Shown: positions 15,827-63,921, counted from the first letter of the stretch. The stretch is 64,000 nt of DNA from an uncultured cyanobacterium (GCA_963706595.1 OY970166.1:3232001-3296000), one strand, 5' to 3'. Notes: generated by a model not told the origin, from the letters alone. A program made the numbers and translations.

Positions 15827-15847
15827 TCCCCAGACTGACGATTTTTT

Positions 15848-16328: not shown

Positions 16329-16345
16329 GAGGGGTTCGACCCCCC
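16329..16345. promoter_or_regulatory. HetR-binding inverted repeat upstream of hetP
   Basis: GAGGGGTTCGACCCCCC resembles the Anabaena hetP HetR box (recalled as GAGGGGTCTAACCCCTC) and sits in the hetC-hetP spacer. Confidence 0.75.
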
Positions 16346-17144
16346 TAGTGATTAGTAACTAAATAGCATAAAATGAACTTACACAATACATGAGTAGAGA
16401 TGAAAACAGTCAGTAAATGTAATGATATATCTCCTGAAATCAGAGATGACATTAATAGGAAAAAGTAGTATAATTACTAAAAGTGTTCTTACTTAATGTA
16501 CTCATCCAAGTAGTTCACTTTTAAAATAATTAACTAAATTTTAAAAAATGCTCTTAACTTGAGAGCAGAAAAAATATACAAAAGATTATCAGGGAAAACT
16601 AATTAAATTAGGAATTGAGACATTCAAAAGAGGTCAAAACTGCATCTACACAGCAGACAGACTTTTAATTGAAGGTCCAGCTAATGGAAAGAATCATCAG
16701 GTCAAATGCAGTCGTAACCTCAATTCAAGGGAGAAGTTTAGACATGAAACTTTATGATTTTTATTTTTACTCCTATTTAGCTTCTCAGGTGATGTCAACT
16801 GATAGCAGTCTTGTCGCCCCAATAAAAACGAATTTACTAAAAATAAATATCCTGGTGTGTCTCTGGCCGCAACCTTTAATATTTTGGCTCTTAGTTTTCA
16901 AATCTGAAGCTAAAACTCTCCTAAACTTTGTCTCAGTCCAACTCAATAGATATCTGGTGGACAAGAATGTAGAGACGTTCCATGGAAGGTCTCTACAAAG
17001 ATTCTAAGAAACGTTTGTATTTACCTGTGAATAAAATTCTTATTCCCTCAATCATCAGCCGCACAACTAACGAGTAGCTGTAATTCAACTTTTACACCAA
17101 AAAACAACGAACCTAGACTAGTCTCATCAAGGATAACTAACACT

Positions 17145-17507
17145 ATGAATCAAAATATTCCTGGAATTAGTAGCAACTTCAATAAAGCAGTAAATCCGCA
17201 ACAATTCGATCAAATAGTAGAAGCAATTCTTGCTGGTAAGTATTCCTGGGCGTGTGTTTTAATGCTACGCATAGTTGGTTACAATCCTTTACATTACATT
17301 CCCTATCGCACTTATAATCGATTGTTGAAAGACAATACTCAAGTTAGCAGAGCGCAGCAACAACATAATCAAAATATGCAAGCTGCTAAACCATCAATGA
17401 ATACTAATGCTTCAGCCAGTTGTTTAAGTAAAATTAAAGACCTTGCTTATTTGGAAGTCGTGGGAAAGCAAACAAATAATCTTCGTGGTGGCGGTTTAGA
17501 TAATTAG
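17145..17507 (+). CDS. hetP: Heterocyst commitment protein HetP
   Basis: [41 protein letters not shown] signature; [15 protein letters not shown]; follows hetC. Confidence 0.92.
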
Positions 17508-17533
17508 TTGATTTCATATAAGATTCACAATAA

Positions 17534-17574
17534 ATGGCTCTATCCCTACCTTGAGGAATAGAGCCATATTTTTT
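17534..17574 (+). terminator. Intrinsic terminator after hetP
   Basis: Stem ATGGCTCTAT / ATAGAGCCAT followed by a T-run. Confidence 0.65.
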
Positions 17575-18315
17575 AGTTTCTGATGGTGTGTGTTATTTAA
17601 CATATCTCTCTGCACGTCAGTAAACCTAGTTGATAACAATAAAATTGATCAATAAAAACTGCCAAAATGGCAAATATTGACCGACAAAATCCTATACATT
17701 AGAGATAACTACTAAACACGAGGTGATTCAATAAAAATTCATTTACAAAAATCACATCAATGAATATCTGACTATGAATCATATCGAACTGACTGTTGTT
17801 GCTGAAGCAGTCAGGATCTCAGGGAGTAAATAACTCCTTAACCAAAACTGACGATTCCAGCGTTACTATTGGTGGTTCTTTTTTCCAGGAAGTCTGAGCA
17901 AAGAAAATTCAGAATAGCGTCTCCCCGTAATTTTAAATTTTAATGCCTGGTATTCAGTCTCTAGACGTGGAGAAACTGAATAAAGCTTCTTGACTGAATT
18001 TGATGTTATCTGGCTCTAAATAAAGTGATATTTAGCATCATGTCCAGTAGTGAAAAGAGAAAAAGTAAAGTTTCAATCGTAGTTATGGCTCAATATGATT
18101 CAGTTAACAGTAGATGAGGTTTAAAATAACCAAATCAAACAATTAAACATCTTAATTTATCGGCGTTTATCGGCGGGTAATTATTCCTATCGGAACCACA
18201 TAGGGTGATAGCTGATAGATTTTATAGCTCTAACGCTTTTTTTCCAAAAATATAATCCTTTTTCTCCCAAACAGGATTATTTCTGCTTTATAAGTTAAAA
18301 ATTTATACAGCAACT

Positions 18316-18351
18316 ACTGGAAGCTCGAAATGAGTAGCTTCCAGTTTTTTT
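18316..18351 (+). terminator. Intrinsic terminator-like hairpin
   Basis: ACTGGAAGCT..AGCTTCCAGT followed by a T-run. Confidence 0.6.
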
Positions 18352-18634
18352 ATCTTGATTCAATCAACCAAATATCTTTCAAACGCTCAAATAGCAGCAT
18401 TATTAAGGCTTTGGTTTTGTACTCTACCCGCTTACACACCCTACTGGACTGGCAAGCCTAAAACAGTATATTGGCGTGACAAGCTTAAAATAGTGCATTA
18501 CGAAAAAGGCATAAGTATTGATTTATCTTGATTTTCTCAAAAATCTATTGCAACATTTTAGCCTTGTCACGCCAGTAGTGGCGTGGCAAGCTTAAAATGT
18601 TGCAAAAACAAATTAACACGATACACCAAAAGGA

Positions 18635-21292
18635 TTAAATATTTGCTTGTTGGCGTTGATATAGTGACCAGTACAAACCTTTTTGTTGTAACAAATCTAA
18701 GTGAGTACCGCGTTCAGCAATTACGCCTCGTTCTAAAACTAAAATCATGTCAGCACGTTTGAGGGGAGCGAAACGGTGAGCAATTAAAAACACAGTCCGG
18801 TGAGATGAAACCTTTTGTAAGTTTTGCAAAACTTGCTGTTCTGTTTCAGAATCTAAGGCGCTGGTAGCTTCATCTAAAACTAAAATTGGGGCTTGGGAAA
18901 GAAATAATCTGGCTAAGGCGATGCGTTGTCTTTGTCCACCAGATAGGGCTGTTCCTCTTTCTCCGACGTTGGTTTCGTAACCGTAGGGTAATTGACTAAT
19001 AAAGTCGTGGGCTACAGCTAGTCTGGCAGCTTCTACTACTTGTTCTGCACCAATATCAGGATTACCGAGGGTGATATTTTCCAAGACAGTACCATTAAAT
19101 AAGAAGTCTTCTTGGAGAACTACGCTAATTTGTTGCCGCAGTGAGGCTAAATCAGCACTTTTAATATCAAATCCATCAATTAAAATCCGACCTGATTCAA
19201 TTTGATAGAGGCGTTGTAACAGCTTAGAAAGGGTACTTTTACCAGAACCACTGCGGCCAACTATTCCCACGAATTGCCCCGGTTCCACGTCAAAAGAGAT
19301 ACCTTTGAGGACAGGTTCAATGTGTGGTTGGTAACGGAAAAAGATTTGCTCGAAGGTGACTTGACCTTTTAGAGATGGTAAAACTAAGCCTGTACCTAAT
19401 TCTGCTTCTGGGGCGATGTTGAGAATATCACCAATCCGGTCTACAGAAAGTAGAACTTGTTGCAGATTTTGCCATAGTTGCACTAGACGCAAGAGTGGTC
19501 CGGTAACTCTTCCCGATAGCATTTGAAAGGCGACAAGTTGCCCAATGGTTAAGTTTTGCTCAATCACTAATTTGGCTCCAAACCAGAGAATCAGTAAGGA
19601 GGAAAAGTTGGTGAGAAAGTTACCGATATTACTGCTAATGTTAGAAGTGGTGGAAGCTTTAAAACCTGTACGCACAAACCGAGCAAATAATCCTTCCCAG
19701 CGATCGCGTGCTACTGGTTCGGCTGCATGGGCTTTAACTGAGTGTATCCCTGAAACTGTCTCTACCAGAAATGATTGACTATCGGCACTGCGATTAAAGG
19801 TTTCGTTGAGCCACTTACGCAGAATTGGTGTAGAAATAATTGTCAACGCTGCAAATAACGGCAACACCGCTAAAGCTACAAAGGTGAGTTGGACGTTGTA
19901 GTAAAACATCAATACCAAGTACACCACAGCAAAAATACTGTCTAGAATTACAGTTAATGCTGTCCCGGTGAGAAACTGGCGGATTTGTTCCAGTTCTTGA
20001 ACTCTGGCGATGGTGTCTCCCACACGCCGAGACTCAAAGTAAGCTAAAGGTAAACGCATCAGATGGCGGAATAGTTGCGCCGATAAGCTTAAATCTAAAC
20101 GCCGGGCGGTATGAGTGAAGATAAATAGCCGCAGTATACCCAGTATAGATTCAAATGCGGCGATCATTAAGAGTGCGATCGCCATGACATCAAGAGTGGG
20201 CAAACTCTGCTGCACCATCACTTTGTCAATCACAACTTGAGTAATCAGTGGTGTCCCCAAACCCAGAAGCTGCAACGTAAAAGACGCTAATAATACTTCT
20301 CCTAGCAGTTTCCGATATTTCCAAACTGCGGGGGTGAACCAACCCAGGTTAAATGTGTCTTGTTTCGATACCAGTTCAACTTGCCAGACTCTACCATCCC
20401 AGGCAGACTCAACCACGGATTGAGGTAAACTTTCACAAGCATAATCATCATTAAGGGGATTAGCAATAATCAGGTTAGACCCTTGCACTCCATAGGCTAC
20501 CACCCAGGAAGCTGGCGGTGATGAATCTAATTGCCATTGAAGTATTAAGGGAAACGTTAACTGCCGCAAATCCGCCCAACTAACTTGCAACTTCCGCAAC
20601 ACCAAGCCTAACTTTTCCCCTGCTTCCACCAGATGTTTCGGGCTTTGTCCCCGTAGTTGGCGTTGCACCCATTCCAAGTTCACCGGATGTTCTAAGTGTT
20701 GCGCCACCATTGTTAAGCAAGCCGCACCTGTATTCCAATTAGAAACGAAGGGATAACCAGATTTGACTACAGTTGCGGATGGGAGAGGTTTCTGTATTTC
20801 CTTGATTTCTGGGCTTATTTCTTTACTCTCCCCCGTTTTATGGTGTTCCTGGGCAGTTAACCAAAACTCGTCTAATTGGGGAGTGGAAAACTCTGCCCAC
20901 AGCGCCGTATTCCAACACACTACTACTACTTCTTTGCTAGCAGCTACGGCTTTGCAATCCACAGTTAGATGATATAAGTCGCCAAACCAATCCCCTGCTT
21001 GTAGCGCTGCTAAAGGCTTACCCTCTCCTTCTGACCGCAACCGGACTTTACCAGTAAAAATCCAAAACTGCTCACCGGCGGCTGCGGTTGACCAAATTTT
21101 TTCTCCTAGACTATACTGACGGATTTCCGCCTGATTTTGCAATTGAGATTGTTGTTCATTCGTCAGCCAAGATAAGGGCGGTTGATTCCAAGGTATGGAA
21201 GCGAGGGCGTTTACTTGTAGAGATTGATTATTCAGAACTTTTAGCTCATTTGTAGTTTGACCGTCAGCTTTTGAATTTTCTCGACTAGCCAT
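18635..21292 (-). CDS. Type I secretion ABC transporter (HlyB-like) with cNMP-like and degenerate C39-like domains
   Basis: NTGAACLTM (no Cys at the catalytic position), TM region, GRSGSGKST, LSGGQ, LDEAT. Confidence 0.9.
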   Translation of the reverse strand: MASRENSKADGQTTNELKVLNNQSLQVNALASIPWNQPPLSWLTNEQQSQLQNQAEIRQYSLGEKIWSTAAAGEQFWIFTGKVRLRSEGEGKPLAALQAGDWFGDLYHLTVDCKAVAASKEVVVVCWNTALWAEFSTPQLDEFWLTAQEHHKTGESKEISPEIKEIQKPLPSATVVKSGYPFVSNWNTGAACLTMVAQHLEHPVNLEWVQRQLRGQSPKHLVEAGEKLGLVLRKLQVSWADLRQLTFPLILQWQLDSSPPASWVVAYGVQGSNLIIANPLNDDYACESLPQSVVESAWDGRVWQVELVSKQDTFNLGWFTPAVWKYRKLLGEVLLASFTLQLLGLGTPLITQVVIDKVMVQQSLPTLDVMAIALLMIAAFESILGILRLFIFTHTARRLDLSLSAQLFRHLMRLPLAYFESRRVGDTIARVQELEQIRQFLTGTALTVILDSIFAVVYLVLMFYYNVQLTFVALAVLPLFAALTIISTPILRKWLNETFNRSADSQSFLVETVSGIHSVKAHAAEPVARDRWEGLFARFVRTGFKASTTSNISSNIGNFLTNFSSLLILWFGAKLVIEQNLTIGQLVAFQMLSGRVTGPLLRLVQLWQNLQQVLLSVDRIGDILNIAPEAELGTGLVLPSLKGQVTFEQIFFRYQPHIEPVLKGISFDVEPGQFVGIVGRSGSGKSTLSKLLQRLYQIESGRILIDGFDIKSADLASLRQQISVVLQEDFLFNGTVLENITLGNPDIGAEQVVEAARLAVAHDFISQLPYGYETNVGERGTALSGGQRQRIALARLFLSQAPILVLDEATSALDSETEQQVLQNLQKVSSHRTVFLIAHRFAPLKRADMILVLERGVIAERGTHLDLLQQKGLYWSLYQRQQANI

Positions 21293-21999
21293 TTCTCAAA
21301 TAATTCATTTTGTAGTGCTTGTTGGAGTTGTATATCTTCTAAAGACGCTGGCAAAAATTGTTCTACGCGAAATAAGCCATAACGTCCTTCGATTTCTATA
21401 GGGCCGACAACTTGACCAGGATTAGCTATATCAATAACTGCTCTCAATTGATCTGGCATTGTGCCTCGGCTGACTGGCCCCATCATGCCGTTGACCATTC
21501 GATCCTCTGACAAGGAATATTCTTTAGCTAGTTGCTCAAAACTACCTCCTTCTTCAATTTGGGTATGTAGTTCTTCAGCTATTTCTCGATTGTCAACAAC
21601 AATCCGGGAAACTATCACCCGATCTAGAAAAATTTTGCGTTCAATAAAGTATTCAGAGATTTTTGGTTCTGTAATCAAAACCTTCAATTTTTCTAATTTG
21701 AAACTAAAGGCAATTGATTCGTAAAATGCCGCGTAATCTGTCACATTTTTCTGTAACCATTCTTGAAAACTTTCGGGGTCATTTAGTTGATTTTTTAAGC
21801 GGAAATCAATGATGGTCTGTTCTGTTAAAGCCGGGCTGATTTGGATGTCATCTCGCTCTTGGATTTCTTGGGAGATTACATACTGTTTGAGAATGTCGCC
21901 AATGAAGTGCGCTAATTTTCCAGAGGCTTGCAGATATTTTACTGCCTGATTTATAAATATTGGCTGGTCATTTACTGTCAAAAATGATGAAGATTCCAT
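21241..21999 (-). CDS. Parvulin-type peptidyl-prolyl isomerase
   Basis: GGSFEQLAKEYS, GMMGPV, GQVVGPI; overlaps the start of the T1SS ABC gene. Confidence 0.88.
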   Translation of the reverse strand: MESSSFLTVNDQPIFINQAVKYLQASGKLAHFIGDILKQYVISQEIQERDDIQISPALTEQTIIDFRLKNQLNDPESFQEWLQKNVTDYAAFYESIAFSFKLEKLKVLITEPKISEYFIERKIFLDRVIVSRIVVDNREIAEELHTQIEEGGSFEQLAKEYSLSEDRMVNGMMGPVSRGTMPDQLRAVIDIANPGQVVGPIEIEGRYGLFRVEQFLPASLEDIQLQQALQNELFEKWLVEKIQKLTVKLQMS

Positions 22000-30422: not shown

Positions 30423-32043
30423 CTATCCATTACCCACATCTTTCTTAACATGGCTGTAAAGCAGACTGTGTGGGGATGACATAGCTTCCATGAGAGGGGA
30501 TGGTTGACAAACTAGACAAAACATGAAAATGAATATATCTATATTGGGATGCGATCGTTAACCAGAAACATCAGATGGGGAGTGGGAATGGAGAAGTTTC
30601 CAGGTAGCGGCGATATCGTGTAATCGCCGTAAACCCCGCCAAATAGTTTTAACTCCCGGCTCACCATCTCCCTTGCGAGCCAGAAAGCCGCCGAGAGTGG
30701 CAATCATTCGCACCGCTTCTCGTAAAGATGGAGGTTTTTTTGGTGGGGTGGGATTTTTGTTGACAGTGGCACATAAAGATTGCCATTCATCAGTTTCTAA
30801 AACAGCATCAGAGGATAAATCAGGGTGAACTCGTGAGGAGTAAGTTAGCCATAATAAACGCCAAGCGACAACAGAATAAGTGGCTAGTGCCATATTGATG
30901 CGGTCAGCAGTGGACAATTGTAATTGTTCAATTCTACACCCACTCTTTAGAGTGTAATGATAGCGTTCTATCAACCAACGATAGGTGTACCATTGCACAC
31001 AACGCGCGGCATCTTCTAAGTTATGAATCTCAAGGCTGGTGAGCAATAACCAACTAATAGGATTGACTCCGGGTGGTGGATGATCTTCTGATGCCAGAAT
31101 TACTTGTAACTTGACAGGTTTTAGCTGTGAACGCCCGATGTGATGTAATGGGACTTGGATATCAACACTAGTGAATCGAATTGTAAGTATCGCTTTTCTA
31201 GCACTATGTTCTGGACTGCGTTTGACCTCTGCTGTCAGTGTTCCATTGGGTTCAATTTGGCGGATTGCAAGATGTAGATATTTCGCACAATGGTCAACTT
31301 TGCGGTTGTGAGTCCCACGAATTAACAAATGGGAATTTTCTGAACGTTTGAGATTAAATAAGTCAAATATGTCTGCTTCTGAGTCACCTATTGTCACCAC
31401 TTGAATCTCTGATGGGACTGAGCTTTGTGTGACTTCTAATCCATCTAACCAGCGCTGACTTTCTTTTAAAAGTGTTTCCCTTTGACGACGTTTTTTCGCT
31501 ATGCCCAAATTTTCAGGTGGTCTAGCCCATACCTGCTGTTCAATAATTCCTAACGGCACTCCATTACTTGTGGCAGCAAATGTTGAATGTACTTTCAATC
31601 CTGATGATTGACGATGGTCAAGATAACCCACACCTTTAGTTTTGGGGTGGTCTGTTAAATCTATGTTTGTTGTGTCTTGAATCGCTAAGACTATTTGATG
31701 TTCTTTGATTCTTTCGATTGTGCTATTTATATGCCCTTGACGAATTTCACTGGCGGGAAAATATGGTGATTTCCAAAAGTTATATGCCGCTTTGGTTGCT
31801 GCCATATTTCCGCTCGCTTGTGGTACGCTGCTATCCGGCTGTGCGGCTAAGTCCTCTACTATCTTGATTAACCGCTTGTTTCGACGAAGGTCTCCTAGGT
31901 CTACCCCAGACAGTTCCTTGGCTGCCCACTTTTCCATGATTCCATTACCCGATTCTGTTCTCTCCACACTATACTTAGCAAGCTTTTTCCCTTTATATTA
32001 AGTATCTTGTTGGATTGTTAAGAAAGATGCGGGTAATGGATAG
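30423..32043 (-). mobile_element. IS4-family (IS50/Tn5-like) insertion sequence, 1621 bp
   Basis: 28-bp TIRs CTATCCATTACCC(A/G)CATCTTTCTTAACA with 1 mismatch; 10-bp TSD CCCGAAGAAG at 30413-30422 and 32044-32053. Confidence 0.95.
30558..31967 (-). CDS. IS4-family transposase
   Basis: LGDLRRNKRL, QDTT, DSEAD, YTYRWLIERYHYTLKSGC (YREK), LGGFLARKGDGEPG. Confidence 0.95.
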   Translation of the reverse strand: MERTESGNGIMEKWAAKELSGVDLGDLRRNKRLIKIVEDLAAQPDSSVPQASGNMAATKAAYNFWKSPYFPASEIRQGHINSTIERIKEHQIVLAIQDTTNIDLTDHPKTKGVGYLDHRQSSGLKVHSTFAATSNGVPLGIIEQQVWARPPENLGIAKKRRQRETLLKESQRWLDGLEVTQSSVPSEIQVVTIGDSEADIFDLFNLKRSENSHLLIRGTHNRKVDHCAKYLHLAIRQIEPNGTLTAEVKRSPEHSARKAILTIRFTSVDIQVPLHHIGRSQLKPVKLQVILASEDHPPPGVNPISWLLLTSLEIHNLEDAARCVQWYTYRWLIERYHYTLKSGCRIEQLQLSTADRINMALATYSVVAWRLLWLTYSSRVHPDLSSDAVLETDEWQSLCATVNKNPTPPKKPPSLREAVRMIATLGGFLARKGDGEPGVKTIWRGLRRLHDIAATWKLLHSHSPSDVSG

Positions 32044-37633: not shown

Positions 37634-38800
37634 TTAAAGCGGTTTCAGTTGGTCTAAAAGACCAGCATCAAGATACTTTTGTTCTATAACATCTACTGAA
37701 TTATCACACCATTTTGCCACTACAGCAGTAGGAACACCTTTAGCAATTTGTTCAGATATAAAAGTATCACGACATGAATATGGAGTAGTTTGACGGGCGA
37801 CTAAAGGGTCTACGATTTTATCCCAAGCCCGTCGGGAAAAGTTTCTATAATGTATTGATAGTCCTTCTGGAGATGGAAAGACTAAAGATTCAGGTTCAGA
37901 GTTTTCAGGCTTAATGGACAATAATAATGCTTGTAGTTTTTGATTACAGTTAAAACCGCGCATTTTATTATTCTTAGAGCCATTAACTCTTACCCTTTCA
38001 CCATTTCCCACCTGAACTAATGCACTATCAAAAGTAATTCTAGAACAATCAGACGTAATATGCTTCCATTGCAAGCCAATAGCTTCTGATGGTCTGCATC
38101 CGGTCAAGAATAAAAACTCTACAAATGAAGCATAATGACTGTAACCCATACCTTTTAAAGGTTTGTGATTTTTAAAAGCCTGAATTATCGTTTGCTTTTC
38201 TGCTTCACTAAAAGCATTAGGTTTTGAATTATCCTGCCAATTATGCTTGGGAAGTGACTTATACATTCCTTCAAAGGGATTAAAATTCACTAAGCCGTAT
38301 TTTATGCCCCATTTACAAGCTGCTGCCAGATACATCAGTACATCTTTAGCTTGTGAATTGGTTGTTTGTTGTAATAAAGCCAGTTTAATTTTGATACTTT
38401 CGTTCAAATTTTGATAACGACAGCGTTTAATATGTTTTTCCAGTACAGCCAGTTTATCTAATGTTCTCGGTTTCAGAGATGGACGTTTGTACTCAATATA
38501 CTTATCCCATAATGCTGAAATTGTGGCTATAGTCTGTTGTTCACCTGGAATAACTATAGATAAATGTCTCTGGGGTTTGTACTTAGTAAGTGTTCTGTCA
38601 AATTGCCCACAGAGAATATCTAACTCTATTTGATGCGCTGTCTGTTCTGCTATGTGGTGATTTTCCGGTGTATCAGCTAAACCCAGGGTCAGATACTTTT
38701 GTGAACCTTCATAAAGTTGTCTTGGTAATCTCAGACGTAATCTTCCCTGAAAGGATTCAATACCTGCTGATCCTTTAGAAGCCTTTTCTGGTTTATGCAT
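37634..38800 (-). CDS. Tyrosine recombinase/integrase with N-terminal arm-binding domain
   Basis: GRLRLRL..KYLTLGLADT arm domain; TGCRPSEA, YSCRDT, C-terminal catalytic Tyr (QKY). Confidence 0.92.
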   Translation of the reverse strand: MHKPEKASKGSAGIESFQGRLRLRLPRQLYEGSQKYLTLGLADTPENHHIAEQTAHQIELDILCGQFDRTLTKYKPQRHLSIVIPGEQQTIATISALWDKYIEYKRPSLKPRTLDKLAVLEKHIKRCRYQNLNESIKIKLALLQQTTNSQAKDVLMYLAAACKWGIKYGLVNFNPFEGMYKSLPKHNWQDNSKPNAFSEAEKQTIIQAFKNHKPLKGMGYSHYASFVEFLFLTGCRPSEAIGLQWKHITSDCSRITFDSALVQVGNGERVRVNGSKNNKMRGFNCNQKLQALLLSIKPENSEPESLVFPSPEGLSIHYRNFSRRAWDKIVDPLVARQTTPYSCRDTFISEQIAKGVPTAVVAKWCDNSVDVIEQKYLDAGLLDQLKPL

Positions 38801-49938: not shown

Positions 49939-51172
49939 TCAATATGCACTATTAGTTATGTATCTGCTTACCAAGCGTATAGGTCGGATTAAGTAGTATA
50001 GGAAAGAAAGACTAGATGGCAATGGAAAAGATTCTCGGTCTGCTTGATTAGTACCAGTGATTAACAGGCTGATTGTAAAACTCAAAAATTGCCACACCAG
50101 ATAAACACGATCTGGCATTCTGCTGAGTGGCCCTCTGACCATCAATTGCTGAAAAAAAAGTTTAATCAACCGTGGAGTTTTAACTTCTGTGAACAGTCTG
50201 TTTCTGCATCCGCACAGTATAAATTAAAGTTGTTGGATCGATTTGAATCTGTTTTTGAATAGCTTGCTTGACTTGATCTGGTAATGGGACATTCAGGATA
50301 GTGTTAACTATCAACAGACTAATAAAAAAGGGTCTTTCGAGTTCCAGACTGTTTACTTTCTGCAATAATTTTTCCCAATCAAATCTCTGTTGAATACGCA
50401 ATAATTCAGCTAAATCGCAAATCTGAGCCAAAGACGCTTTACTTTCATTAATTCCTCTGGCAATTTGTACAGCGAGGATTATTAACAAATCATCACAAGA
50501 GAATTCGATGATAGATTCACCTTTGAGTGTTAAAGACCTGCTTCGTTGCCACAAAGTTTCAAAATCAGGAAGTTTAAAAGGGAAGTAAGATAAGGGAGTC
50601 AATTCATAGTGAATATCCACCACTATTTCTGGTTTCTGGCTATGGACAAAAGTTTGTTGCCAACCATAGTGGTCAACTTCTAGTTTATATTTCTGAGCAA
50701 TCAATAATTCTTGAGCTTTGACTACATCCTCTTGTTTTACCAGAATATCTAGGTCGCTAAATTGTCTCATGGCTAAATTGCCATAAATAGAAATAGCTAA
50801 AACAAGACCCTTAAAAGGAATTGCCCGAATTTTGTGAGCTTCAAAAAGCTTAAGGATGTTAAGCAATTCGTGGCTCAAAAATAAGTTGCGACTAGCATTA
50901 GTGTGATAATGATTCTGAAGCTGAGTTAAAACTTTTTTGGGAATAGCTTCTTTCCCAGTGGTCTTGAGACTCTGGTACAGGAGTGGTATCGTCCCATGAT
51001 GTGCTGCAACTTGCATGAGATATGTCCAGTCTATATTTTGCTGGAGTATGGTATTAATTCGCTCTGCGGTTTCGGGGTCTATATGAGTTCGGGTACAACA
51101 CAGAAGTAGCTCAATTTCCGGACGGCTAACCTTTTTTTGTAATTGAGTAAGAGGCTTGTTTAAGGTCATCAT
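49939..51172 (-). pseudogene. Nucleotidyltransferase (NTP_transf_5-like), frameshifted near the C-terminus
   Basis: FKGLVLA..RQFSDLDILV and VDIH in 50180-51172; the family-type tail LSFLYYLIRPIRL is in another frame (49939-50169); removing 1 nt near 50200 fuses the two. Confidence 0.75.
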
Positions 51173-51179
51173 AAATTAC

Positions 51180-52996
51180 TTATTTATAGTGTTGAGCTTG
51201 AGTTTCAAACAATTGTGCATAGCAACCACCCAGATTTATTAGTTCTTCATGGGTGCCGCTTTCCATAATTGAACCGTTTGCCATCACGTAGATACAGTCA
51301 GCCATTCTGACGGTTGATAAGCGATGGCTAATCAGAATAGCAGCTTGATTTTTAATCAGTTGGCGGAAATTCTGAAACACCTCTTCTTCGGCTTTCGGGT
51401 CTAAAGCACTAGTTGGTTCATCCAACACAATTAACTGTGAATCTCGCAAAAATGCCCTGGCCAAAGCGATTTTTTGCCACTGACCGATGCTCAATTCTTC
51501 CCCTTGTTCAAACAATTTACCGAGTATGGTGTCGTAACCTTGAGGGAGCTTGCTGATGACATCATCAGCACCGGAACGACGAGCAGCAGCAATGATTTTG
51601 TCGTGAGTGAATGGCAGATTGATATTTGCCATCCTAATATTTTCTTTAGCAGTCAGATGATATTTTGTATAATCTTGAAAAATTACGCTAATTTGACTGC
51701 GGAGGGCAGCAATTTCAAATTGACGTAAATCTATGCCATCAATGGTAATACTACCAAGGGTAGGATCGTATAAACGACACAAAAGTTTAATTAAAGTAGT
51801 CTTACCAGAGCCGTTTTCTCCTACTAACGCGACAACTTCTCCTGGGCGAATAGTCAGATTAATATCCTCAAGTGCCTGACGCTTCGTATTTGCATATTGA
51901 AAGCTGACATGATTAAACAAAATACCATTTTGCATTGGCATGGGAAAAGGTTTTGGATTTAACGGTTCTGTAACCTTTGGTTTCAAGTTAGAAATTCATA
52001 TAAGTTGGTGAGAAATAGGTTGTCTTCATATAAACCAGACAAACCACCCAAGAGACTTTTCAGGTCATTTTGTCCCCGTTGCAATGCTTGGTAATAAAGG
52101 ACTAAATCACCGAAGCGGATAGTACCTTGCATAGTTTGATAAATAATAAAACCATAGGCAGCAAAAACTAAAGTTGTCGCCGTTGCTTGAGCGCCAAGAT
52201 TAGACACAGATTGTCTTTTGATCATAGCTATGTTTTCTTGGTATATTTGTCGGCGCAAACGCAAATACCACTGACTAAAGAAAGAACCCAAATCAAACAA
52301 GCGAATTTCTTTAGCGTGTTGCTCTGTAGTTAGTATCCGGCTCAAGTATCCTGCTTGCCTTTCCTGGGCTGTCTTTTGACGCTGCCAATGATACATAATA
52401 CCGGAGTATTTCACCCGCACCACCATCGCCGGAATCGCAGCAATAAATAAGATAACTCCTATTCCCCAATGCAATGACAGTAGTAACGCCAGCATCGCCA
52501 CCAAAGAGATACTACTCAAACCCAGCCATCCCAAACGATGTAGGATTTGCCCCGGTCGAGAAGGAGCTTCTTTTTGCGCTCGCTGCAAGGCATCATAATA
52601 GTCAGAGTTCTCGTAATACTCCAGGTCTACCTCAATTGATTTAGCATGGAGGATGTTTTGCATATAGTCGGTGAGTCGCTGAGATTGGGCAGCATACACC
52701 ACTTCAGTCAGGGAAGAACATACGGTAGTCACTAGGGTGATAGCAGCAAAGAAGCCAAGCAAAAGTAATACTCGACTAAAGGCTGCTTCTTTGTCGGCAA
52801 GATTCACACTGGCGGCTACTGTATCTACAATGAGTTTGGTGAGGTAGAGAGAAAGTAAAGGTAATAAACCTTGAATCAATAAAAGTGCCACGAAAGCAAT
52901 AGTCAAACGAGGACTACTGTTCCAAACTAAGCGCAAGGCAGGCAGAATACGTAAGCTTTGCTGGATTTTATATCTTAAGGTTTTACCTGCTTTCAT
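51180..52996 (-). pseudogene. ABC exporter split by a 1-nt frameshift
   Basis: TM half (51983-52996) and ATPase half (GENGSGKTT, LSIGQWQ, LDEPT) abut at TTT CTA ACT TGA AAC; adding one base restores YEFL-x-LKPKV. Confidence 0.8.
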
Positions 52997-52999
52997 ATT

Positions 53000-53443
53000 T
53001 TAAATACACTCTTTTGTAAAAGATGCCATTTGGCTAAAATGAGAAAGGTCTGCAACCTTGCCAATTACAACCTGTCCCTGATTTTCTAACCACGCATGAG
53101 CCTTTAACTCTCCTTCTTGACCTTTGGCAACACCAATGCAGAGATTAGATGTATAACCGTGGCGACTCATGAAAAACTGGCAAGTTAAGGCACGCGCCAG
53201 ACACTTGACACCAGGCATATAATGACTGCTCACTTCAACAGCCCAGATGATTTTGTCAATAGAGATGTGGTATTTTTCTTGGCATTTAGGTTTGGTGTTA
53301 CTTAGCCTCAATAGAAGTTGATGCAAGGTTTTAAATGACAGCAACCACAAACCTAATCTAACTAATGTCAATATAATAAAAGTGCTAATTAAAAGCTGTT
53401 TTTTTTGATAATCTAATTGGAAAAACTTAGATAAATGCTTCAT
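53000..53443 (-). CDS. Lasso peptide B2 leader peptidase (transglutaminase-like)
   Basis: KCLARAL catalytic Cys, IGV..AHAW His motif; 147 aa. Confidence 0.9.
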   Translation of the reverse strand: MKHLSKFFQLDYQKKQLLISTFIILTLVRLGLWLLSFKTLHQLLLRLSNTKPKCQEKYHISIDKIIWAVEVSSHYMPGVKCLARALTCQFFMSRHGYTSNLCIGVAKGQEGELKAHAWLENQGQVVIGKVADLSHFSQMASFTKECI

Positions 53444-53834
53444 TCTTATTTAGATATTTGATGATTTTTTTATTGACAATGCAGTTTTGATTTTCTAAAT
53501 CTTCAGCAGATAGAGTCAACCGTGGTTTTGAATAATTATCATTGTTGTTCAAAGATGATGCAATAAAAAAATTAATAGCCGACTCTGCTGACCACTGAGG
53601 ATGAAAGTCTAAACATGAAGATATCTTGGAAATATCAGCTTGTGAATGTTGAATATCTCCTGCACGAGGAGAAACGAAATTAATTTCTGGTTGCCATTGC
53701 GGAAAATGATTTTTGAGAATATCAATCAACTGCACTAAAGAAGTAGATGTTCCAGTTCCTAGACCTTCTGATCACAATTTTTCTGTAAGATGAGAGCCAA
53801 TAAATCCGGCTCCGCCAGTGACAATAAAATGCAT
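53427..53834 (-). pseudogene. NAD-dependent sugar epimerase/dehydratase remnant
   Basis: Reads MHFIVTGGAGFIGSHLTEKL*SEG-LGTGTSTSL..PRAGDIQHSQADISK: Rossmann start, in-frame TGA, then direct junction to the C-terminal part with the middle missing. Confidence 0.85.
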
Positions 53835-53838
53835 GATC

Positions 53839-54780
53839 TTAAATTTGCTCAGTAGATATAGATAATTGCAACTCCTCATACCTAGCGGTTTCACCCCGCA
53901 TTTCTCGATAGCAATGCAAAACTCTACGCGCTTGCTCTATTTGATGATTTTGAATATGTAAATTGGCAAGTCCGAGGTAGATATCGTAAAAGTAAGGATC
54001 GAGAAAATTCATAGGAAAATTTAGTAATTCTGGATTGCGACCAATGACTTTTTCCTTAGTACGCAGGTAGTCAACGAACATCTGCTCTTTATCTTGACAA
54101 ATACTATTTGGCGATTGCCGATAACGTGTTAAGGGTTGGTTTAAAAAGTAAATCGGGAATTTTTCAATCACACGCAGCCATAAATCATAATCTCCACAAA
54201 TTCTCACAGTTTCATCAAACAAACCCACTTGATCTAAACAGTCTCGACGCACAACAACCGTTAGGACTGGAATGTAGTTGTATCTAAAGAGAGTCCATAA
54301 TACCTGAAGATTAGGGGTAGGAAATTCTGTATTGTACGAACCTGGAAACAAACCCCGTTGATCAGAAAAAAAGAGTGCATCTGAATAGATCAAACCAATG
54401 CGTGGATTGGCTTCCAAGACGGAAATCTGTTTTTCTAACTTCTGAGGTTCCCAGAGGTCATCATCATCTAAAAAGGCGATATACTTCCCTTTAGCAGAGC
54501 GAATTCCAGCATTGCGAGCGGCAGATAATCCTTGATTGGTTTGATGAATGGCGGTAATGTGATGATGATCGCTAAATTGAGCGAGGACTTGGGGAGTATT
54601 GTCCTGAGAACCATCGTTGATGACAATAATTTCGTAGTCTTTGTAGGTTTGTGCCAAAACGCTGTTAATTGCCTGACTGACAAGATTGCCACGCTGGTAA
54701 GTAGGAATAATAACACTGACGGTTGGCTTAAAAACTTGCATATTAAAAAATTTCCTTAGTAAATATAGGCAGATATTCAA
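53839..54780 (-). CDS. Glycosyltransferase family 2
   Basis: VSVIIPTY, INDGS, ARNAGI, FLDDDD; likely start at MQVFK. Confidence 0.92.
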   Translation of the reverse strand: MNICLYLLRKFFNMQVFKPTVSVIIPTYQRGNLVSQAINSVLAQTYKDYEIIVINDGSQDNTPQVLAQFSDHHHITAIHQTNQGLSAARNAGIRSAKGKYIAFLDDDDLWEPQKLEKQISVLEANPRIGLIYSDALFFSDQRGLFPGSYNTEFPTPNLQVLWTLFRYNYIPVLTVVVRRDCLDQVGLFDETVRICGDYDLWLRVIEKFPIYFLNQPLTRYRQSPNSICQDKEQMFVDYLRTKEKVIGRNPELLNFPMNFLDPYFYDIYLGLANLHIQNHQIEQARRVLHCYREMRGETARYEELQLSISTEQI

Positions 54781-54793
54781 ATTACTGGTGTTG

Positions 54794-55813
54794 CTAAACC
54801 AAAGTATGAATCAGGCGTAAGTTTTCTAAAATAACATCATAAATTTGCCCCAAATTTCCCAAATTATCAGGAAGTAATAACTCCCGCACAGGAACAGTTT
54901 TTGCCAATTGACCTAATTCTTGAAACTCCTGTCTACACTGTTGAGAAGAGAGGAAAGCACGCCCATAGGAATTGAACATTAGATGCTTCATTGCTTCAGG
55001 CAGAGAAAGAGAATTAATTATAGGTGCTGTGAGGTTTTGGTCACGTTCTGCTAATATGTACACAGCAAGTAGTGGCAAAGCTTGGGATTGAAACTGCCAC
55101 TGTTCGCTATCTTTTATTTGCAAATCTATAAAGCGTTTATCTAGATTTGTTGATACCAGTGATAACTCTTCTATTGAGCCGTGAATGGCATTTACAGAAT
55201 TAGGCCACAGGCGTAGACGAGGATACGCAGATTGTACCCAAAAACTTTTTTCATCAGGAATAAGTGCGGCAATATCATCTGCTAATACGGAGAATCCACG
55301 GATAGCCAACGCTGCTGCTGTGGTTGATTTACCTGCGCCTGATTGTCCTAAAATGGCGATCGCACTACCATCAACCGCAACCACGCTAGCATGAAGACAG
55401 GTCACTCCCCGCAGCCGTAACAGATGACCAAGTACACAACCCAGCAGCAAAGATACCGCATCTGTAAATAGTGCATCTCTAGACCAAAAACCCCAAACTT
55501 GACTACCATCAGGATTCAAGATGAATTCCAAGCAATCAACTCCATCACAAGACCTTATCCTCCAGTAAGTGCCGTCATCCCGGTGCGTCGTCCACAAATG
55601 GAAGCCTGTTTGTTGATACCACTCAAGCGGCACATTCCAAAAAGTTTGGTCGAGTAATGGCGGTTGACTCTGCTGTTCACCAACTAGGTGAATAGCAACA
55701 TCTATCGGTGCAGAACTGTTAACAGTAACTAACCCTGGGAGCAGTCGATTAATAGATAGGTTGAGTCCATAAAATTGATAGCAATAATTATCGTTTTTAA
55801 TTGACATTTGCAT
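54794..55813 (-). CDS. HPr-kinase-like peptide kinase (PadeK/PsmK type)
   Basis: LHASVV, Walker A GQSGAGKSTT, LADD; lasso-cluster context. Confidence 0.85.
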   Translation of the reverse strand: MQMSIKNDNYCYQFYGLNLSINRLLPGLVTVNSSAPIDVAIHLVGEQQSQPPLLDQTFWNVPLEWYQQTGFHLWTTHRDDGTYWRIRSCDGVDCLEFILNPDGSQVWGFWSRDALFTDAVSLLLGCVLGHLLRLRGVTCLHASVVAVDGSAIAILGQSGAGKSTTAAALAIRGFSVLADDIAALIPDEKSFWVQSAYPRLRLWPNSVNAIHGSIEELSLVSTNLDKRFIDLQIKDSEQWQFQSQALPLLAVYILAERDQNLTAPIINSLSLPEAMKHLMFNSYGRAFLSSQQCRQEFQELGQLAKTVPVRELLLPDNLGNLGQIYDVILENLRLIHTLV

Positions 55814-56009
55814 TTGTATTTATTTTTATCTGCAAACTCAGGAGTTTCAGAACCCCGATTTTTTGAGAAAGTTGGGGTTCTTTTGGCAAGGACTAACTTA
55901 CACACTTTATGTTCACAAAATGTTAAGGAAAAGGATAGGTAAAAAATCCCTTTTAGTCTAGATTTATAGGCACTTTTCTAACCACCTTTATTGGGTACTA
56001 CCAAAAAAA

Positions 56010-56132
56010 CTAAAAAGTGGTACTAACAAAACCACCGCTACCACCCACTTGTTGTGTCAAACCAGATATTTTTCCGTGAGCTTTCAATTCTGGTTGAGAA
56101 TATTTTTTTTTCGTGTTTTCAGATTGTGACAT
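56010..56132 (-). CDS. Lasso-type RiPP precursor peptide (40 aa, absent from the ORF track)
   Basis: MSQSENTKKKYSQPELKAHGKISGLTQ-QVGGSGGFVSTTF; leader matches YxxPxLxxxGxxxxxTx; AAGGA 8 nt upstream. Confidence 0.85.
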   Translation of the reverse strand: MSQSENTKKKYSQPELKAHGKISGLTQQVGGSGGFVSTTF

Positions 56133-56444
56133 TTGATCAATCCTTGTTGTTTGCGTTTTACTTGTTTGTAATTATCAGACTATAAAATATTACACTAATT
56201 CATCTCAATTGATTTATAAATTTCATGTAAAGTTATTACTATTTTCTGTGATCAAAAATTGCAACTAAAAATTGCCAAAGTCTATATTTACAGCTTTGTA
56301 AAAAATATTTTAATAAACAAAAATTCATATATTAATGTGATTTACATAAAAACTCTCCTCAACTATTATTCTTGCCTCTATCCTTTACAGTTAGCTATTT
56401 CGTGACTTATTGGTAAGTTCTAATCAAATTGAGTAATAGAAAAT

Positions 56445-57626
56445 TTAGGCAGAGACTACCTTAGTAGTAGATGCCAAATCTTCATATATTTGGAACATCC
56501 GTTTTTGTAAAATTGCTTCATCATATTCCTCGACAATAACTTGCCGTGCTTGTGCAAGATGTGCTTCTCGCTCTTGGGGAGGTTGATTGACAACTTTAAT
56601 CATTGCCTCTGCTAGAGCATCTGGGTTTTCCGGTTCTACCAAAGTACAAAATTCTTCAATAAAAGTGCCTCGATAAGCTGACAAATCACAGGTAATGACT
56701 GGGCGTTCACAGGCAACTGCTTCAATTAGTGTCGAAGGAAAGGCATCACTGACGGGATAATTGATAATCACATCTGCTAAGTTGTAGCCTGTAGGCATGA
56801 AGTTATAAGGTAGGGCGGGCATCCAGCGCAGATTATCTAATAACCCAAGTTCTTCGGCTTGTTTGCGGATGCTTTCGTAAATAACTACTGCGTCCTCTGC
56901 ACCGGCACGCCCTAGCTTTGAAAAGACGAGTACCGTCGGTTTAGTGAATTGAGGAAAAGCCTGTGCATAGGCTGTAAATATCTGCTCATGGTTGTACAGT
57001 TTAGACCAACCACGGGGCGAAAGCAGAATTGTGGCTTCTTCATCAATCTTCAATATTTCCCGTCGCCATTTTGGTAAATCCTTGGTGACTCCAGTACGAA
57101 AATGTTTAGGGTTTGTCCCTAAAGGAATTAATTCTACCCTTTGATGAGGGTTCAACAGTGCTTTGGATTTTTCTATCAAACTAGGTGTCTCTACAATCAG
57201 CACCCCAGTGTTCTTAAACACTTGGCTAATCCTATCGTTATGCTTGCTTTCTTCCCTTTCTGGTTGTAGTAAATGATTTAAAAAGCCCCAAGCAGAGAGG
57301 ACAAGAGGGCTGAGATTCGCCAGGACACAACACTGGGCGTGCCAACCAATGGCGTGGACATGGATAATATCAGGCTGGAATTCGTCTGCAAGTTTACGTA
57401 ACGGCTCTGCCATTTCCTCGGCCATCTGGTCTTCGTATGGGTAGGTGTTGGTAAACTCCTCTTGATACTTTCGCCAAACAGTGGGGAAATAGCGATAATT
57501 TTGGGGAGCTTCGGTTTCATAGGGGTCTACATCTCCTAGTAGCCAAACTTCATAACCTGCTTTTACGACCCAATCTAAGGGTCTTGTCAAGGCAACACCC
57601 CCAGCACCAATCATCAGTACACGCAT
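56445..57626 (-). CDS. Glycosyltransferase family 4 (GT-B)
   Basis: PDIIHVH, DAFPSTLIEAVACERPVI, LVEPENPDALAEA. Confidence 0.88.
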   Translation of the reverse strand: MRVLMIGAGGVALTRPLDWVVKAGYEVWLLGDVDPYETEAPQNYRYFPTVWRKYQEEFTNTYPYEDQMAEEMAEPLRKLADEFQPDIIHVHAIGWHAQCCVLANLSPLVLSAWGFLNHLLQPEREESKHNDRISQVFKNTGVLIVETPSLIEKSKALLNPHQRVELIPLGTNPKHFRTGVTKDLPKWRREILKIDEEATILLSPRGWSKLYNHEQIFTAYAQAFPQFTKPTVLVFSKLGRAGAEDAVVIYESIRKQAEELGLLDNLRWMPALPYNFMPTGYNLADVIINYPVSDAFPSTLIEAVACERPVITCDLSAYRGTFIEEFCTLVEPENPDALAEAMIKVVNQPPQEREAHLAQARQVIVEEYDEAILQKRMFQIYEDLASTTKVVSA

Positions 57627-57647
57627 AATTTGATTTTTTGCTTCAAG

Positions 57648-57938
57648 TTAAGAATCAGTAATTTCCACTAGTCCAACCTTAACCAATTTATCAATAAACT
57701 TGAGCAAGTCTTGTTTTAATTTCTCTGGCTCGACATCATACTCTTTTAGCAAGGTGTCGTAAGCTGTCTGGATAGAATCTGACTCAGTTAGCACAAAGAA
57801 TATTTTTGTACCTACCTCGTTTTGGCTAAAATATTCTTCGCTTTGCAGATTCAGTAAAACTGATTCCCCTGCTAAGTCTTGAGTGAGAACATTTGCAGGT
57901 AAGGATACTTTTTGATTAAAAACTATTTGTGTTGTCAT
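57648..57938 (-). CDS. PqqD-family RiPP recognition element (lasso B1)
   Basis: GESVLLNL..YFSQNEVG..EYDV..LKQDLLKFIDKL..GLV. Confidence 0.92.
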   Translation of the reverse strand: MTTQIVFNQKVSLPANVLTQDLAGESVLLNLQSEEYFSQNEVGTKIFFVLTESDSIQTAYDTLLKEYDVEPEKLKQDLLKFIDKLVKVGLVEITDS

Positions 57939-62577: not shown

Positions 62578-62826
62578 AACTTACCTAGAGACGCGATTCA
62601 TCGCGTCTCTATTCCCATGAAAAGACTCAATATAAAAACTGTTAATACTATAAAAAAAATCTCTTTTAAAGACACAATTACTTGAGATTTGTCTAGAAAA
62701 TCACCAAAATTCTATTGACTTTTCTTAATCAAATTGCCAAATATAAAGAATAGATTATAATTTTGCAGCATAATCTTTTTGCAAGTCTTACTGAGTTTCA
62801 CTGTAAGTATTTCAGGAGTTAATTAC

Positions 62827-63087
62827 ATGGCTAGGATAGAAATTGATGACTTGTACCCTAGTAATCATCAACAGCTTCTCAATGAAATAACAGACAGGGA
62901 AATGCAGACAGTGGAGGGACGAGAAGGAAACACAGTCAGCACAGGAATCAATGACCTGAATGAACAATCTTTAGCCAATACATTAGAGCAAAATATCGAT
63001 AATCTTCTTTTTCACCTGAGAAACCAAATGGGTGTAGTGATTTTTGGTGCTAGAAATCAATTTAATCAAGGATTCAATTCTTTTTAA
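62827..63087 (+). CDS. Small putative bacteriocin/RiPP-like precursor (GR variant of the GG leader)
   Basis: MARIEIDDL..LLNEITDREMQTVEGR; CAGGAG RBS upstream. Confidence 0.65.
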   Translation: MARIEIDDLYPSNHQQLLNEITDREMQTVEGREGNTVSTGINDLNEQSLANTLEQNIDNLLFHLRNQMGVVIFGARNQFNQGFNSF

Positions 63088-63357
63088 TTAATTTTGATAT
63101 TCAAATAACCATCCATTTTGCGTTTAAATTTATTTAAATTTTGAAAATTTCTGATAAAAATCAATAGCCACGATAGCAATATTCAATGGTTTGCAAACAC
63201 CGCGAGGCTCAGATCCCCGACTTCTTGAAGAAGTCGGGGATTTTTATTTATTGAAAACTCTGGTTTCTTCAAGACACTGGGCTTTTGAAGTCTCACAATA
63301 TATTCCAGCGACTATTAAATCTACATTTTGTATGTTGCAATTATTCAAAGAAGTGTT

Positions 63358-63461
63358 ATGGCGGTATGTACTTCAATGAAGTACATCATAGCCCCCTCCT
63401 CGCTTGCGGGGAGGGGGTTGGGGGTGGGGTTCTTGTATCTCACTTAACTGATAACCGCTAT
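63358..63461. mobile_element. MITE-like element
   Basis: Ends ATGGCGGT / ACCGCTAT; internal GC hairpin; near-identical partial copy at 42507. Confidence 0.6.
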
Positions 63462-63663
63462 AGTCTCAATTCAAAAACATGATTTGTCAAATAAAACTGA
63501 TATTTTCAGAAAGACACAACTCTTGAATATATGTCTTTTTTAGGACGAATTTAACCTTGACTTTCTAGTTTTCAATCAATAAAAATGACAGTATCAGTTA
63601 AGCAAACACAGCTTGATTGCTTACCGATTTCATTTACCAGCGACAAATGCTTGAGGAGCTAAT

Positions 63664-63921
63664 ATGGCAAACATCAAATTGTCTAAGCTAAATGCTACTG
63701 GTTCTGAGTTATTCCTAGATTCTGAGAGTTTTCTCAATGAATTGAACGATGTCGATTCAATTACTGGTGGTAGTACCTCTGGTCAAGGTTACAACCAAGG
63801 CCACGGCTATGAAGGATTCAGTGGTATTTCAACACTAACTAAATTAGCCGAGGCATTTGTCACAGTCTATGCGATTGGTCATGTTACCGAGCTAGCCAAG
63901 TCATTCAGCCACGGATACTAA
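63664..63921 (+). CDS. Double-glycine-leader bacteriocin/RiPP-like precursor
   Basis: MANIKLSKLNATGSELFLDSESFLNELNDVDSITGG then a Gly/Ser/His-containing core; GAGGAG RBS. Confidence 0.75.
   Translation: MANIKLSKLNATGSELFLDSESFLNELNDVDSITGGSTSGQGYNQGHGYEGFSGISTLTKLAEAFVTVYAIGHVTELAKSFSHGY

Follow-up and report, generated by a model that had tools for sequence, protein, structure and literature searches.

We describe a gene cluster at positions 49939-57938 of a 64,000-nucleotide stretch of DNA from an uncultured cyanobacterium (GCA_963706595.1 OY970166.1:3232001-3296000; the whole stretch is referred to as the window), with all genes on the - strand. The source genome is a single contig of 5.57 Mb and is 94% complete. 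The cluster combines the split leader machinery of lasso peptides, i.e., a leader-binding protein B1, or RiPP recognition element (RRE; RiPP, a peptide made on the ribosome and modified after translation), and a leader protease B2, with a precursor peptide, a kinase, two glycosyltransferases, an ABC exporter and a nucleotidyltransferase (Table 1). It contains no lasso cyclase. Our comparisons show that the cluster is a member of a conserved cyanobacterial family of cyclase-free clusters, the product of which is probably a linear, exported, Thr-rich peptide likely to carry sugars and phosphate.

Table 1. Genes of the cluster in the window, followed by the Thr-rich peptides of the minimal loci discussed in the text.
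Feature	Position	Strand	Evidence and remarks
B1 / RRE (PqqD family), leader-binding protein, 96 aa	57648..57938	-	PF05402 E 5e-14; matches solved lasso B1 proteins 9x90, TbiB1
GT4 glycosyltransferase, 393 aa	56445..57626	-	PF00534; GT-B fold model
Precursor peptide, 40 aa	56010..56132	-	NCBIfam lasso_cyano (NF033528) E 6e-6, below cut-off
HprK-like peptide kinase, 339 aa	54794..55813	-	PF07475 E 1e-7 (just under cut-off); TIGR04352 weak match
GT2 glycosyltransferase, ~300 aa	53839..54741	-	PF00535 E 5e-38
GalE-like NDP-sugar epimerase remnant	53427..53834	-	TGA follows codon 20; 639 nt deleted in frame at 53761/53762
B2 leader cysteine protease, 147 aa	53000..53443	-	NF033537 E 4e-32 and PF13471, both over cut-off; C81/H116/E120 intact
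MsbA-like ABC exporter	51180..52996	-	PF00664 and PF00005 in two frames; 1-nt deletion near 51990
NTP_transf_5 nucleotidyltransferase (PsmN/LppN-like)	49939..51172	-	PF14907 E 5e-59; 1-nt insertion near 50195
Minimal-locus peptide	L025:7487-7639	+	
Minimal-locus peptide	L073:12060-12203	-	
Minimal-locus peptide	L185:3518	-	
Minimal-locus peptide	L186:9730	-	
Minimal-locus peptide	L209:8687-8830	+	
Minimal-locus peptide	L210:1716-1874	-	
Minimal-locus peptide	L215:16723-16998	+	

A preliminary description of the window had listed these genes, including an epimerase, as one co-oriented set. Profile searches and inspection of open reading frames (ORFs) recover B1, GT4, the precursor, the HprK-like kinase, GT2 and B2 as described; what has to be corrected is that the epimerase is only a remnant and that the exporter and nucleotidyltransferase genes are frameshifted in this copy. 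The profile matches of B1 and B2 and the catalytic residues of B2 place the lasso split B1/B2 machinery in the cluster, and the GT4 gene lies 22 nt from B1. Profile and alignment tests find both an HprK-like kinase with the His-Lys-Asp-Asp motif (H141, K162, D179 and D180 in the window copy, of which H141, K162 and D180 are invariant in the alignment) and a PsmN-like NTP transferase. The N-terminal half of the exporter matches PF00664 only and has no peptidase domain, and profile scans detect no archaeal-type signal peptidase I among the cluster genes, B2 standing in its place. B2 has no match in the PDB by sequence, and a scan for promoters and terminators gives no excess over shuffled sequences (24 vs 19.7 and 7 vs 6.9, respectively). 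A whole-genome profile search finds one B2 and two PqqD genes in the source genome. The second PqqD protein (163 aa with a long C-terminal extension; L003:1396-2958, in the G000:C1:2201280 region) adjoins an O-methyltransferase-like gene, the ORF that follows it is presumably nucleotidyltransferase-like, and the locus is possibly another RRE cassette.

The absence of an asparagine-synthetase-like cyclase, which the preliminary description had noted, is confirmed for the window, where none of the ORFs is cyclase-like, and extends to the rest of the genome. The only match to PF00733 in the 5.57 Mb is a 225-aa ORF, which we take to be QueC-like, and a tblastn search of the source genome with five cyanobacterial lasso cyclases gives a best E value of 0.42. 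Nor do the intact orthologous clusters contain a cyclase, as the same five queries yield no matches at E<1 in 24 family loci.

Among 389 genomes of the same taxonomic family, a GT4 match (E<=1e-40) is found in 29, namely the source, 19 genomes at 87-95% identity, which span six genera, and 9 genomes at 43-65%; none of 10 same-genus genomes has a match at this threshold. An independent scan names Nostoc, Desmonostoc, Cylindrospermum and Anabaena minutissima as carriers. Sixteen of the 19 close genomes have the genes colinear on one contig in the order B1-GT4-precursor(s)-kinase-GT2-(epimerase)-B2-ABC-nucleotidyltransferase, and because this order is shared by so many orthologous genomes the cluster is not a chance assembly. 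Contig ends truncate the clusters of G214 and G262, the latter also with its kinase split and only a remnant of the epimerase, and the cluster of G302 is found in two places. A collapsed copy consisting of fragments of B1, GT4 and B2 only is present in G139 (L188:8043-9033). Outside the taxonomic family, 2 of 90 genomes from a family of another order carry this gene set, likewise without a cyclase, their B1, GT4 and kinase being 44-56% identical; one of the two lacks GT2, and B2 and the nucleotidyltransferase are placed differently in both. GT4 occurs in 6/401, 3/301, 0/57 and 2/90 genomes of the sets searched and the kinase in 9/401 genomes of a phylum sample, and a plasmid collection gave no match; these searches are samples that do not establish absence elsewhere. 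A metagenome scan with a degenerate leader pattern returned 82 loci, 5 of them with family precursors and the rest chance matches; the five show no cyclase match, and at least some of them repeat clusters already in our set.

Median pairwise ratios of nonsynonymous to synonymous substitution (dN/dS), computed at dS 0.18-0.28 from pairs that are not independent and with matches below 55% identity left out, are 0.12 for B1, 0.14 for ABC, 0.17 for the kinase, 0.19 for GT4, 0.20 for the epimerase, 0.25 for GT2, 0.28 for the nucleotidyltransferase and 0.40 for B2. In the copies that cover them, the B2 Cys/His, the kinase P-loop and DD, the nucleotidyltransferase DxD, and the GT2 and GT4 motifs are kept with a single exception, one L-to-V change; the kinase GKST and DD motifs are present in 20/20 orthologs and the GT2 FLDDDD motif in 19/20, the remaining one being cut by a contig end. 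Judged by these ratios, the cluster genes are under purifying selection. The phzF-like and DUF4332 genes that flank the cluster are 68-543 bp apart in 5/5 same-genus genomes, and the 19 loci show 13 different upstream neighbourhoods; by this comparison of flanks, the cluster is inserted in the source genome and is mobile between genomes. Accessory glycosyltransferases occur in some clusters: five have a convergent GT4, one has a second GT2, and two have a GT14-like gene (Atlas PF02485, score 0.98).

We collected 45 precursors from 20 genomes, comprising 34 distinct cores; the genomes and the precursors are related and the counts that follow are not independent. The core start was placed by the Thr(-2) rule (PMC10368454) and is therefore a predicted cleavage site. 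The Y, P and L of the YxxPxL leader motif and T(-2) are kept in 45/45 precursors, the window leader reading YxxPxL...G...T(-2), and precursors occur in 1-4 copies. Lasso cyclases require Asp or Glu at core positions 7-9 (PMC9266682). In the family, Asp or Glu is found at positions 7, 8 and 9 in 0, 0 and 1 of 45 cores (the one being Asp9) and never at 6, 10 or 11, which amounts to 1/34 distinct cores versus 14/20 in cyclase-bearing cyanobacterial clusters; the 13-aa window core has no Asp or Glu, and the two distant-order cores have no acidic residue at all. The core start is near-invariant (GGSGGF-x-TT, with V2, G3, G4, S5, G7, F8 and T11 invariant), the codons of V2, S5 and T11 varying synonymously, and the two distant-order cores keep G-S5-G and a TT pair near positions 10-11. 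The tail is variable and consists of 34% Thr and 16% Pro. The median Thr fraction is 0.23 in full clusters, 0.48 in the minimal loci described below and 0.06 in cyclase-bearing clusters. No core ends in Ser and none contains Cys (0/45 each). All cluster genes are covered by contigs from RNA libraries of relatives. In libraries X19 and X20 of one relative (L063:11224-11911), which come from a single study, short contigs with the precursor genes have a word depth of about 7,800-12,000 versus 37-300 for enzyme-gene contigs, and in the RNA runs X17 and X18 the depth is nearly flat; contig depth cannot rank genes, and that the multi-copy precursors may be highly expressed in this relative is only a lead.

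Seven genomes (G031, G165, G386, G388, G389, G390 and G576) contain what we refer to as minimal loci, in which B1 (55-62% identity) and GT4 (45-66%) are followed by a Thr-rich peptide, the leader of which is lasso-like. The sequence around these loci shows neither a kinase nor B2, and no cyclase or exporter, the loci of G388, G389 and G390 being on short contigs, and B2 (PF13471) is not found genome-wide in 5 of the 6 minimal-locus genomes searched. The leaders lack the usual Thr(-2) arrangement and the tails are very Thr-rich; the L215 peptide holds a 10-residue repeat about three times, and some loci continue with GT2/TPR glycosyltransferases. The minimal loci may be a system of their own. 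In each of the three architectures GT4 thus stands beside B1 and a peptide rich in Thr, and because the minimal loci keep only the RRE, GT4 and the Thr-rich peptide, GT4 is the likely candidate for a peptide O-glycosyltransferase. Large proteins flank two of the loci studied, namely a 2793-aa ORF at L215:2461-10842, the start of which presumably resembles the SpvB/toxin-complex type, and two RTX/RHS-repeat proteins at L020:1643-6183; neither flank is conserved with the cluster.

In trees built with FastTree or quick IQ-TREE and rooted at the midpoint, the full-cluster B1s fall together with those of the minimal loci (support 92), and among the GT4s it is that of the minimal locus L215 which stands closest to the full-cluster clade (support 92). 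The family B2 groups with canonical lasso B2s (support 95). The kinase clade is sister to that of the L026 cluster (support 98), which has the order B1-cyclase-precursor-kinase-GT2, and GT4 therefore occupies the cyclase slot. An alignment-based model of GT4 (pLDDT, i.e., predicted local distance difference test, 92.9; a single-sequence model reached only 36) has the GT-B fold, and its best PDB matches are GT4s at 14-18% identity.

From these data we infer that the peptide is probably both glycosylated and phosphorylated and propose the following pathway. B1 would, with high probability, bind the YxxPxL leader. B1-guided GT4 would then add the first sugar directly to tail Thr, and GT2 and the optional glycosyltransferases would extend it with epimerase-made NDP-sugars, a step for which we consider the chances balanced; we hold the same balanced view of the next one, in which the kinase would phosphorylate the invariant Ser5 of the G-S-G motif. 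By analogy with PsmN, the nucleotidyltransferase could cap the Ser5 phosphate or attach a sugar to it, a role we put at slightly below an even chance. B2 would very likely cleave one residue past Thr(-2), with export of the core by the ABC transporter. A probable ancestor of the family is a cyanobacterial lasso cluster that had the kinase and in which GT4 replaced the cyclase. More tentatively, and leaning a little against it ourselves, we consider that an undescribed RiPP class of short mucin-like glycopeptides may have B1, GT4 and the Thr-rich peptide as its founding module, to which the kinase, nucleotidyltransferase, B2 and exporter would be lasso add-ons. Because the cores are small and mostly neutral, the product seems more likely to be a signal, or a glycopeptide of the surface or matrix, than an antibiotic; a conflict role would also fit the patchy, mobile distribution.

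The window copy itself is partly damaged. Compared with the orthologs, the epimerase has a TGA after codon 20 and an in-frame deletion of 639 nt between 53761 and 53762; the 639 missing bases are present in contigs of four public runs from relatives, and the loss in the source genome looks real. The epimerase is full length in 15/19 relatives and a stub or absent in 4/19, so that the gene seems optional in the cluster; its intact orthologs match TIGR01179 GalE below the cut-off. Relative to all aligned orthologs, the ABC gene, 98-99% identical to the intact copy of G392, is 1 nt short near 51990, which splits the ORF, and the nucleotidyltransferase gene has 1 extra nt near 50195 and ends at 330 aa instead of ~411. 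Net frameshifts affect 16/185 genes shared with one same-genus genome (off-frame ORFs may account for two of the 16) and 4/100 of a second gene set, i.e., overall about 4-9% of conserved genes in the source assembly. Among the frameshifted genes (G000:C1:167997-169674 and others) are one read as ccmM and a fabF-like gene, both of which we presume to be essential. With indels in this proportion of conserved genes, pseudogene calls anywhere in the source genome need caution. At the assembly's indel rate the probability of at least two frameshifts in 7 kb is 0.11, and therefore neither assembly error nor decay is favoured; whether the exporter and nucleotidyltransferase frameshifts are assembly errors is about an even call. 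No shared sequence motif is present in 16 assembly indel contexts, and none of the sequencing runs searched for words of the window holds half of them (the best holds 0.25), so that no reads of the source strain were found. The window core has 13 aa versus 16-26 aa in the 44 other copies, and an alternative frame continues from the same T-run of the precursor for seven more codons to a stop; the short core may be an artefact.

This damage would speak for one of the two readings left by the preliminary description, namely that the cluster is a decayed glyco-lasso pathway from which the cyclase was deleted, the remainder being a non-functional remnant. The window copy with its deleted epimerase, two frameshifts and the shortest core would fit such a history, as would the remnants in G262 and the fragmented copy of G139. 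However, sixteen clusters are colinear and cyclase-free, dN/dS ranges from 0.12 to 0.40, the layout is repeated at 44-56% identity in another order, and precursors in 1-4 copies retain a conserved leader and core start. Decay is thus highly improbable and is rejected for the family, as the loci of 19 genomes at 87-95% GT4 identity and of two genomes of a distant order are all cyclase-free. The other reading, a cyclase-independent linear glycopeptide system that reuses the lasso leader machinery, is supported by the cyclase-free orthologs, the purifying selection and the cores without a ring-forming Asp or Glu. A cyclase encoded elsewhere could still close the ring in trans and yield a lasso product. 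All 19 close genomes hold asparagine-synthetase-family genes, in 5 of them inside a separate B2-containing cluster, and a lasso-clade cyclase is present elsewhere in 3 of the 19; a quick tree of asparagine-synthetase-like proteins (28 rows, the most divergent group left out) served solely to tell lasso cyclases apart from the remaining proteins. Matches to lasso cyclases at 47-60% occur in G011, G159 and G392 only, the others being at <=32%, and each of these three cyclases lies inside its own lasso cluster with its own B1, B2 and kinase. In G205, G112 and G392, divergent asparagine-synthetase-family genes stand beside a separate B2. Thirteen of the 19 genomes have a single B2, none of them with a match above 32% to a lasso cyclase, and the distant G1051 also has a single B2. 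One core in 45 does have Asp at position 9, but an acidic residue is missing from positions 7-9 of the other 44 and from 6, 10 and 11 of all 45, and the source genome has no such cyclase gene. We consider cyclization in trans very improbable.

Two further explanations accept a linear peptide and differ in what the glycosyltransferases do. The glycan may be linked through phosphate only, the sugars being attached via kinase-made phosphates and extended by GT4 and GT2, with the tail Thr phosphorylated or bare. In pseudomycoidin, hexoses are added to phosphoserine in a PsmN-dependent manner (PMC6993621), and LppK phosphorylates a single Ser close to the core N-terminus several times over (PMC13381572); the full clusters retain kinase and nucleotidyltransferase, and the GT4 fold is like that of small-acceptor enzymes. 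We nevertheless find this explanation unlikely, given that the seven minimal loci, in which neither kinase nor nucleotidyltransferase is seen, have peptides even richer in Thr; with neither enzyme seen there, no cluster-made phosphate would be available to GT4. Alternatively, the glycosyltransferases could serve the envelope or exopolysaccharide, and the peptide would be merely phosphorylated, as a B2-processed analogue of LPP (the linear phosphopeptide systems compared below), or act as a glycan carrier or primer. B1-less GT4 relatives are indeed located among sugar genes, the minimal loci adjoin other glycosyltransferases, and LPP clusters occur in capsule loci with boundaries that are hard to set (PMC13381572). 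GT4 and GT2, however, travel with the cluster to the 13 upstream neighbourhoods and in the clean insertion in the source genome, GT4 lies next to B1, and Thr richness tracks with B1 plus GT4 (four B1-less GT4 relatives show no Thr-rich peptide), which makes an envelope role quite improbable.

Several observations weigh against our preferred reading of a linear, glycosylated and phosphorylated peptide. The structures matched by the GT4 model are those of small-molecule enzymes of the GT4 family (sucrose-phosphate synthase, BshA, MshA), and no peptide O-glycosyltransferase is among the top listed structure matches; GT4 relatives at 41-46% identity in G295, G350, G165:C28 and a broken paralog of the source genome have neither B1 nor a peptide nearby, and a link to peptides is thus no constant trait of the subfamily. 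B2 is the least constrained gene, the distant-order B2s are only 22% identical to the window B2, and the nucleotidyltransferase is of a different lineage in 2/19 genomes. To these are added the asparagine-synthetase-family genes of all close genomes, the relatedness of the precursors counted, the short contigs of three minimal loci and the quick, midpoint-rooted trees. The source-genome paralog (46%) is interrupted by a stop and lies among sugar genes (L072:7024-8307; G000:C1:1973137-1974297).

Glycosylation is relatively rare among RiPPs (PMC11912497). Both the end product of LPP and the part played by the PsmN/LppN nucleotidyltransferase are open questions, and the LPP authors suspect a partner outside the core cluster (PMC13381572); candidate partners of this type (GT4, GT2 and epimerase) are packed in one compact mobile cluster in named Nostoc, Desmonostoc, Cylindrospermum and Anabaena genomes, which makes the partner question directly testable. 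The family would show that linear products can be reached from lasso machinery in a second way, with B2 retained. Genome mining that requires a cyclase would overlook such clusters, and RRE-Finder handles lasso RREs without a cyclase as possible false positives. If the proposed glycosylation is correct, an enzyme guided by the leader to Thr residues in a variable tail would be of use in the production of defined glycopeptides, and a founding module of the kind considered above would imply an RRE-guided GT4 that O-glycosylates Thr at many sites of a leader-tagged peptide and accepts variation in the core.

Elsewhere in the window, short ORFs of 102 and 85 aa at 62779-63921 (+) have similar 'I..DL...ELL.E' type N-termini and presumably resemble cyanobacterial bacteriocin-type precursors. 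Inspection by eye suggests two peptidase-containing ABC transporters with a PPIase-like gene at 12770-21999 (+), an IS4-type transposase at 30558-31967 (+) and a phage-type integrase at 37634-38800 (+).

Membership among the lasso peptides was considered and rejected: the leader and the B1/B2 pair are of the lasso kind, the cyclase and the Asp or Glu at core 7-9 are lacking, and a threaded product is predicted to be absent. Canonical cyanobacterial lasso clusters (NF033528; L021, L022, L026, L033-L039) share with the family a homologous leader, B1, B2, kinase, ABC and nucleotidyltransferase, but they have a 600-680-aa cyclase, Asp or Glu at core 7-9 (14/20) and little Thr. Some neighbouring systems were noted in passing. 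Same-genus and same-order lasso clusters (L022:5211-16836, L023, L024 and L176) have a cyclase, kinase, methyltransferase and cytochrome P450, and cores with a common D-G-G motif, the combination of tailoring enzymes being unusual. The lasso precursors of L033-L039 have long cores of 45-55 aa in which D-F-x-F-F follows the ring position; their tails often contain paired Cys. At L028:3602-11298, B2 adjoins a nitrile-hydratase-like leader protein, a LanM-type enzyme (DUF4135 and LANC_like), an ABC gene and a nucleotidyltransferase, possibly a lanthipeptide cluster that uses the lasso protease.

Glycocins have a Cys-containing, disulfide-bearing core and a peptidase-containing exporter, whereas the cores of the cyanobacterial family lack Cys, its exporter lacks a peptidase domain and a constant GT4 stands beside the RRE. 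Like the family, as we propose it, glycocins and the davasin glycosyltransferase IgtG represent RiPP sugars on Ser/Thr(/Cys); unlike its GT4, IgtG is a GT2-family enzyme and acts on one Ser of the mature lasso (PMC9576775, PMC11912497). The paeninodin and pseudomycoidin clusters share the split B1/B2, HprK-like kinase, PsmN-like nucleotidyltransferase, ABC exporter and lasso leader, and differ in the macrolactam cyclase, the Asp or Glu at 7-9 and the C-terminal Ser, all absent in the cyanobacterial family, which has a dedicated GT4, GT2 and epimerase instead (PMC6993621, PMC9266682). The preliminary description had assigned the cluster to their tailoring pattern; this holds for gene content and fails for the target, as the Ser that their kinases modify is the C-terminal one (PMC9266682) and no core among the 45 has Ser in that place.

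We found no description of the cyanobacterial family in the literature covered, which leaves out most subscription papers, Fig. S11 and Table S10 of RRE-Finder and the supplements of PMC13381572. The closest known system is LPP of Bacillota, i.e., cyclase-free RRE-kinase-NTP transferase-ABC systems that yield linear phosphopeptides (Popov et al. 2026, PMC13381572). According to that paper, the two have in common a discrete RRE, a kinase resembling HprK, an NTP transferase, an MsbA-like exporter and the absence of a cyclase, as well as 1-3 precursors in LPP with a conserved YxxP leader, a variable C-terminus and a Ser near the core start, and a patchy distribution; by analogy, the invariant Ser5 is a candidate for LPP-like polyphosphorylation. 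The differences are equally clear in the same text (PMC13381572). LPP uses an archaeal-type signal peptidase where the family has the lasso B2 cysteine protease, and its core genes include no glycosyltransferase, whereas in the family GT4 is constant, GT2 nearly so and the epimerase usual. The LPP leader consensus YxxPxVLxHQxIxFETxxS is not matched by the family leader, which has LKAHG and GLT where the consensus differs, and no counterpart of the minimal B1-GT4-peptide loci is found in the sections of the LPP paper covered (PMC13381572). The family also differs in its Thr/Pro-rich tails and in its hosts, cyanobacteria rather than Bacillota; it is built like LPP without being a member of it.

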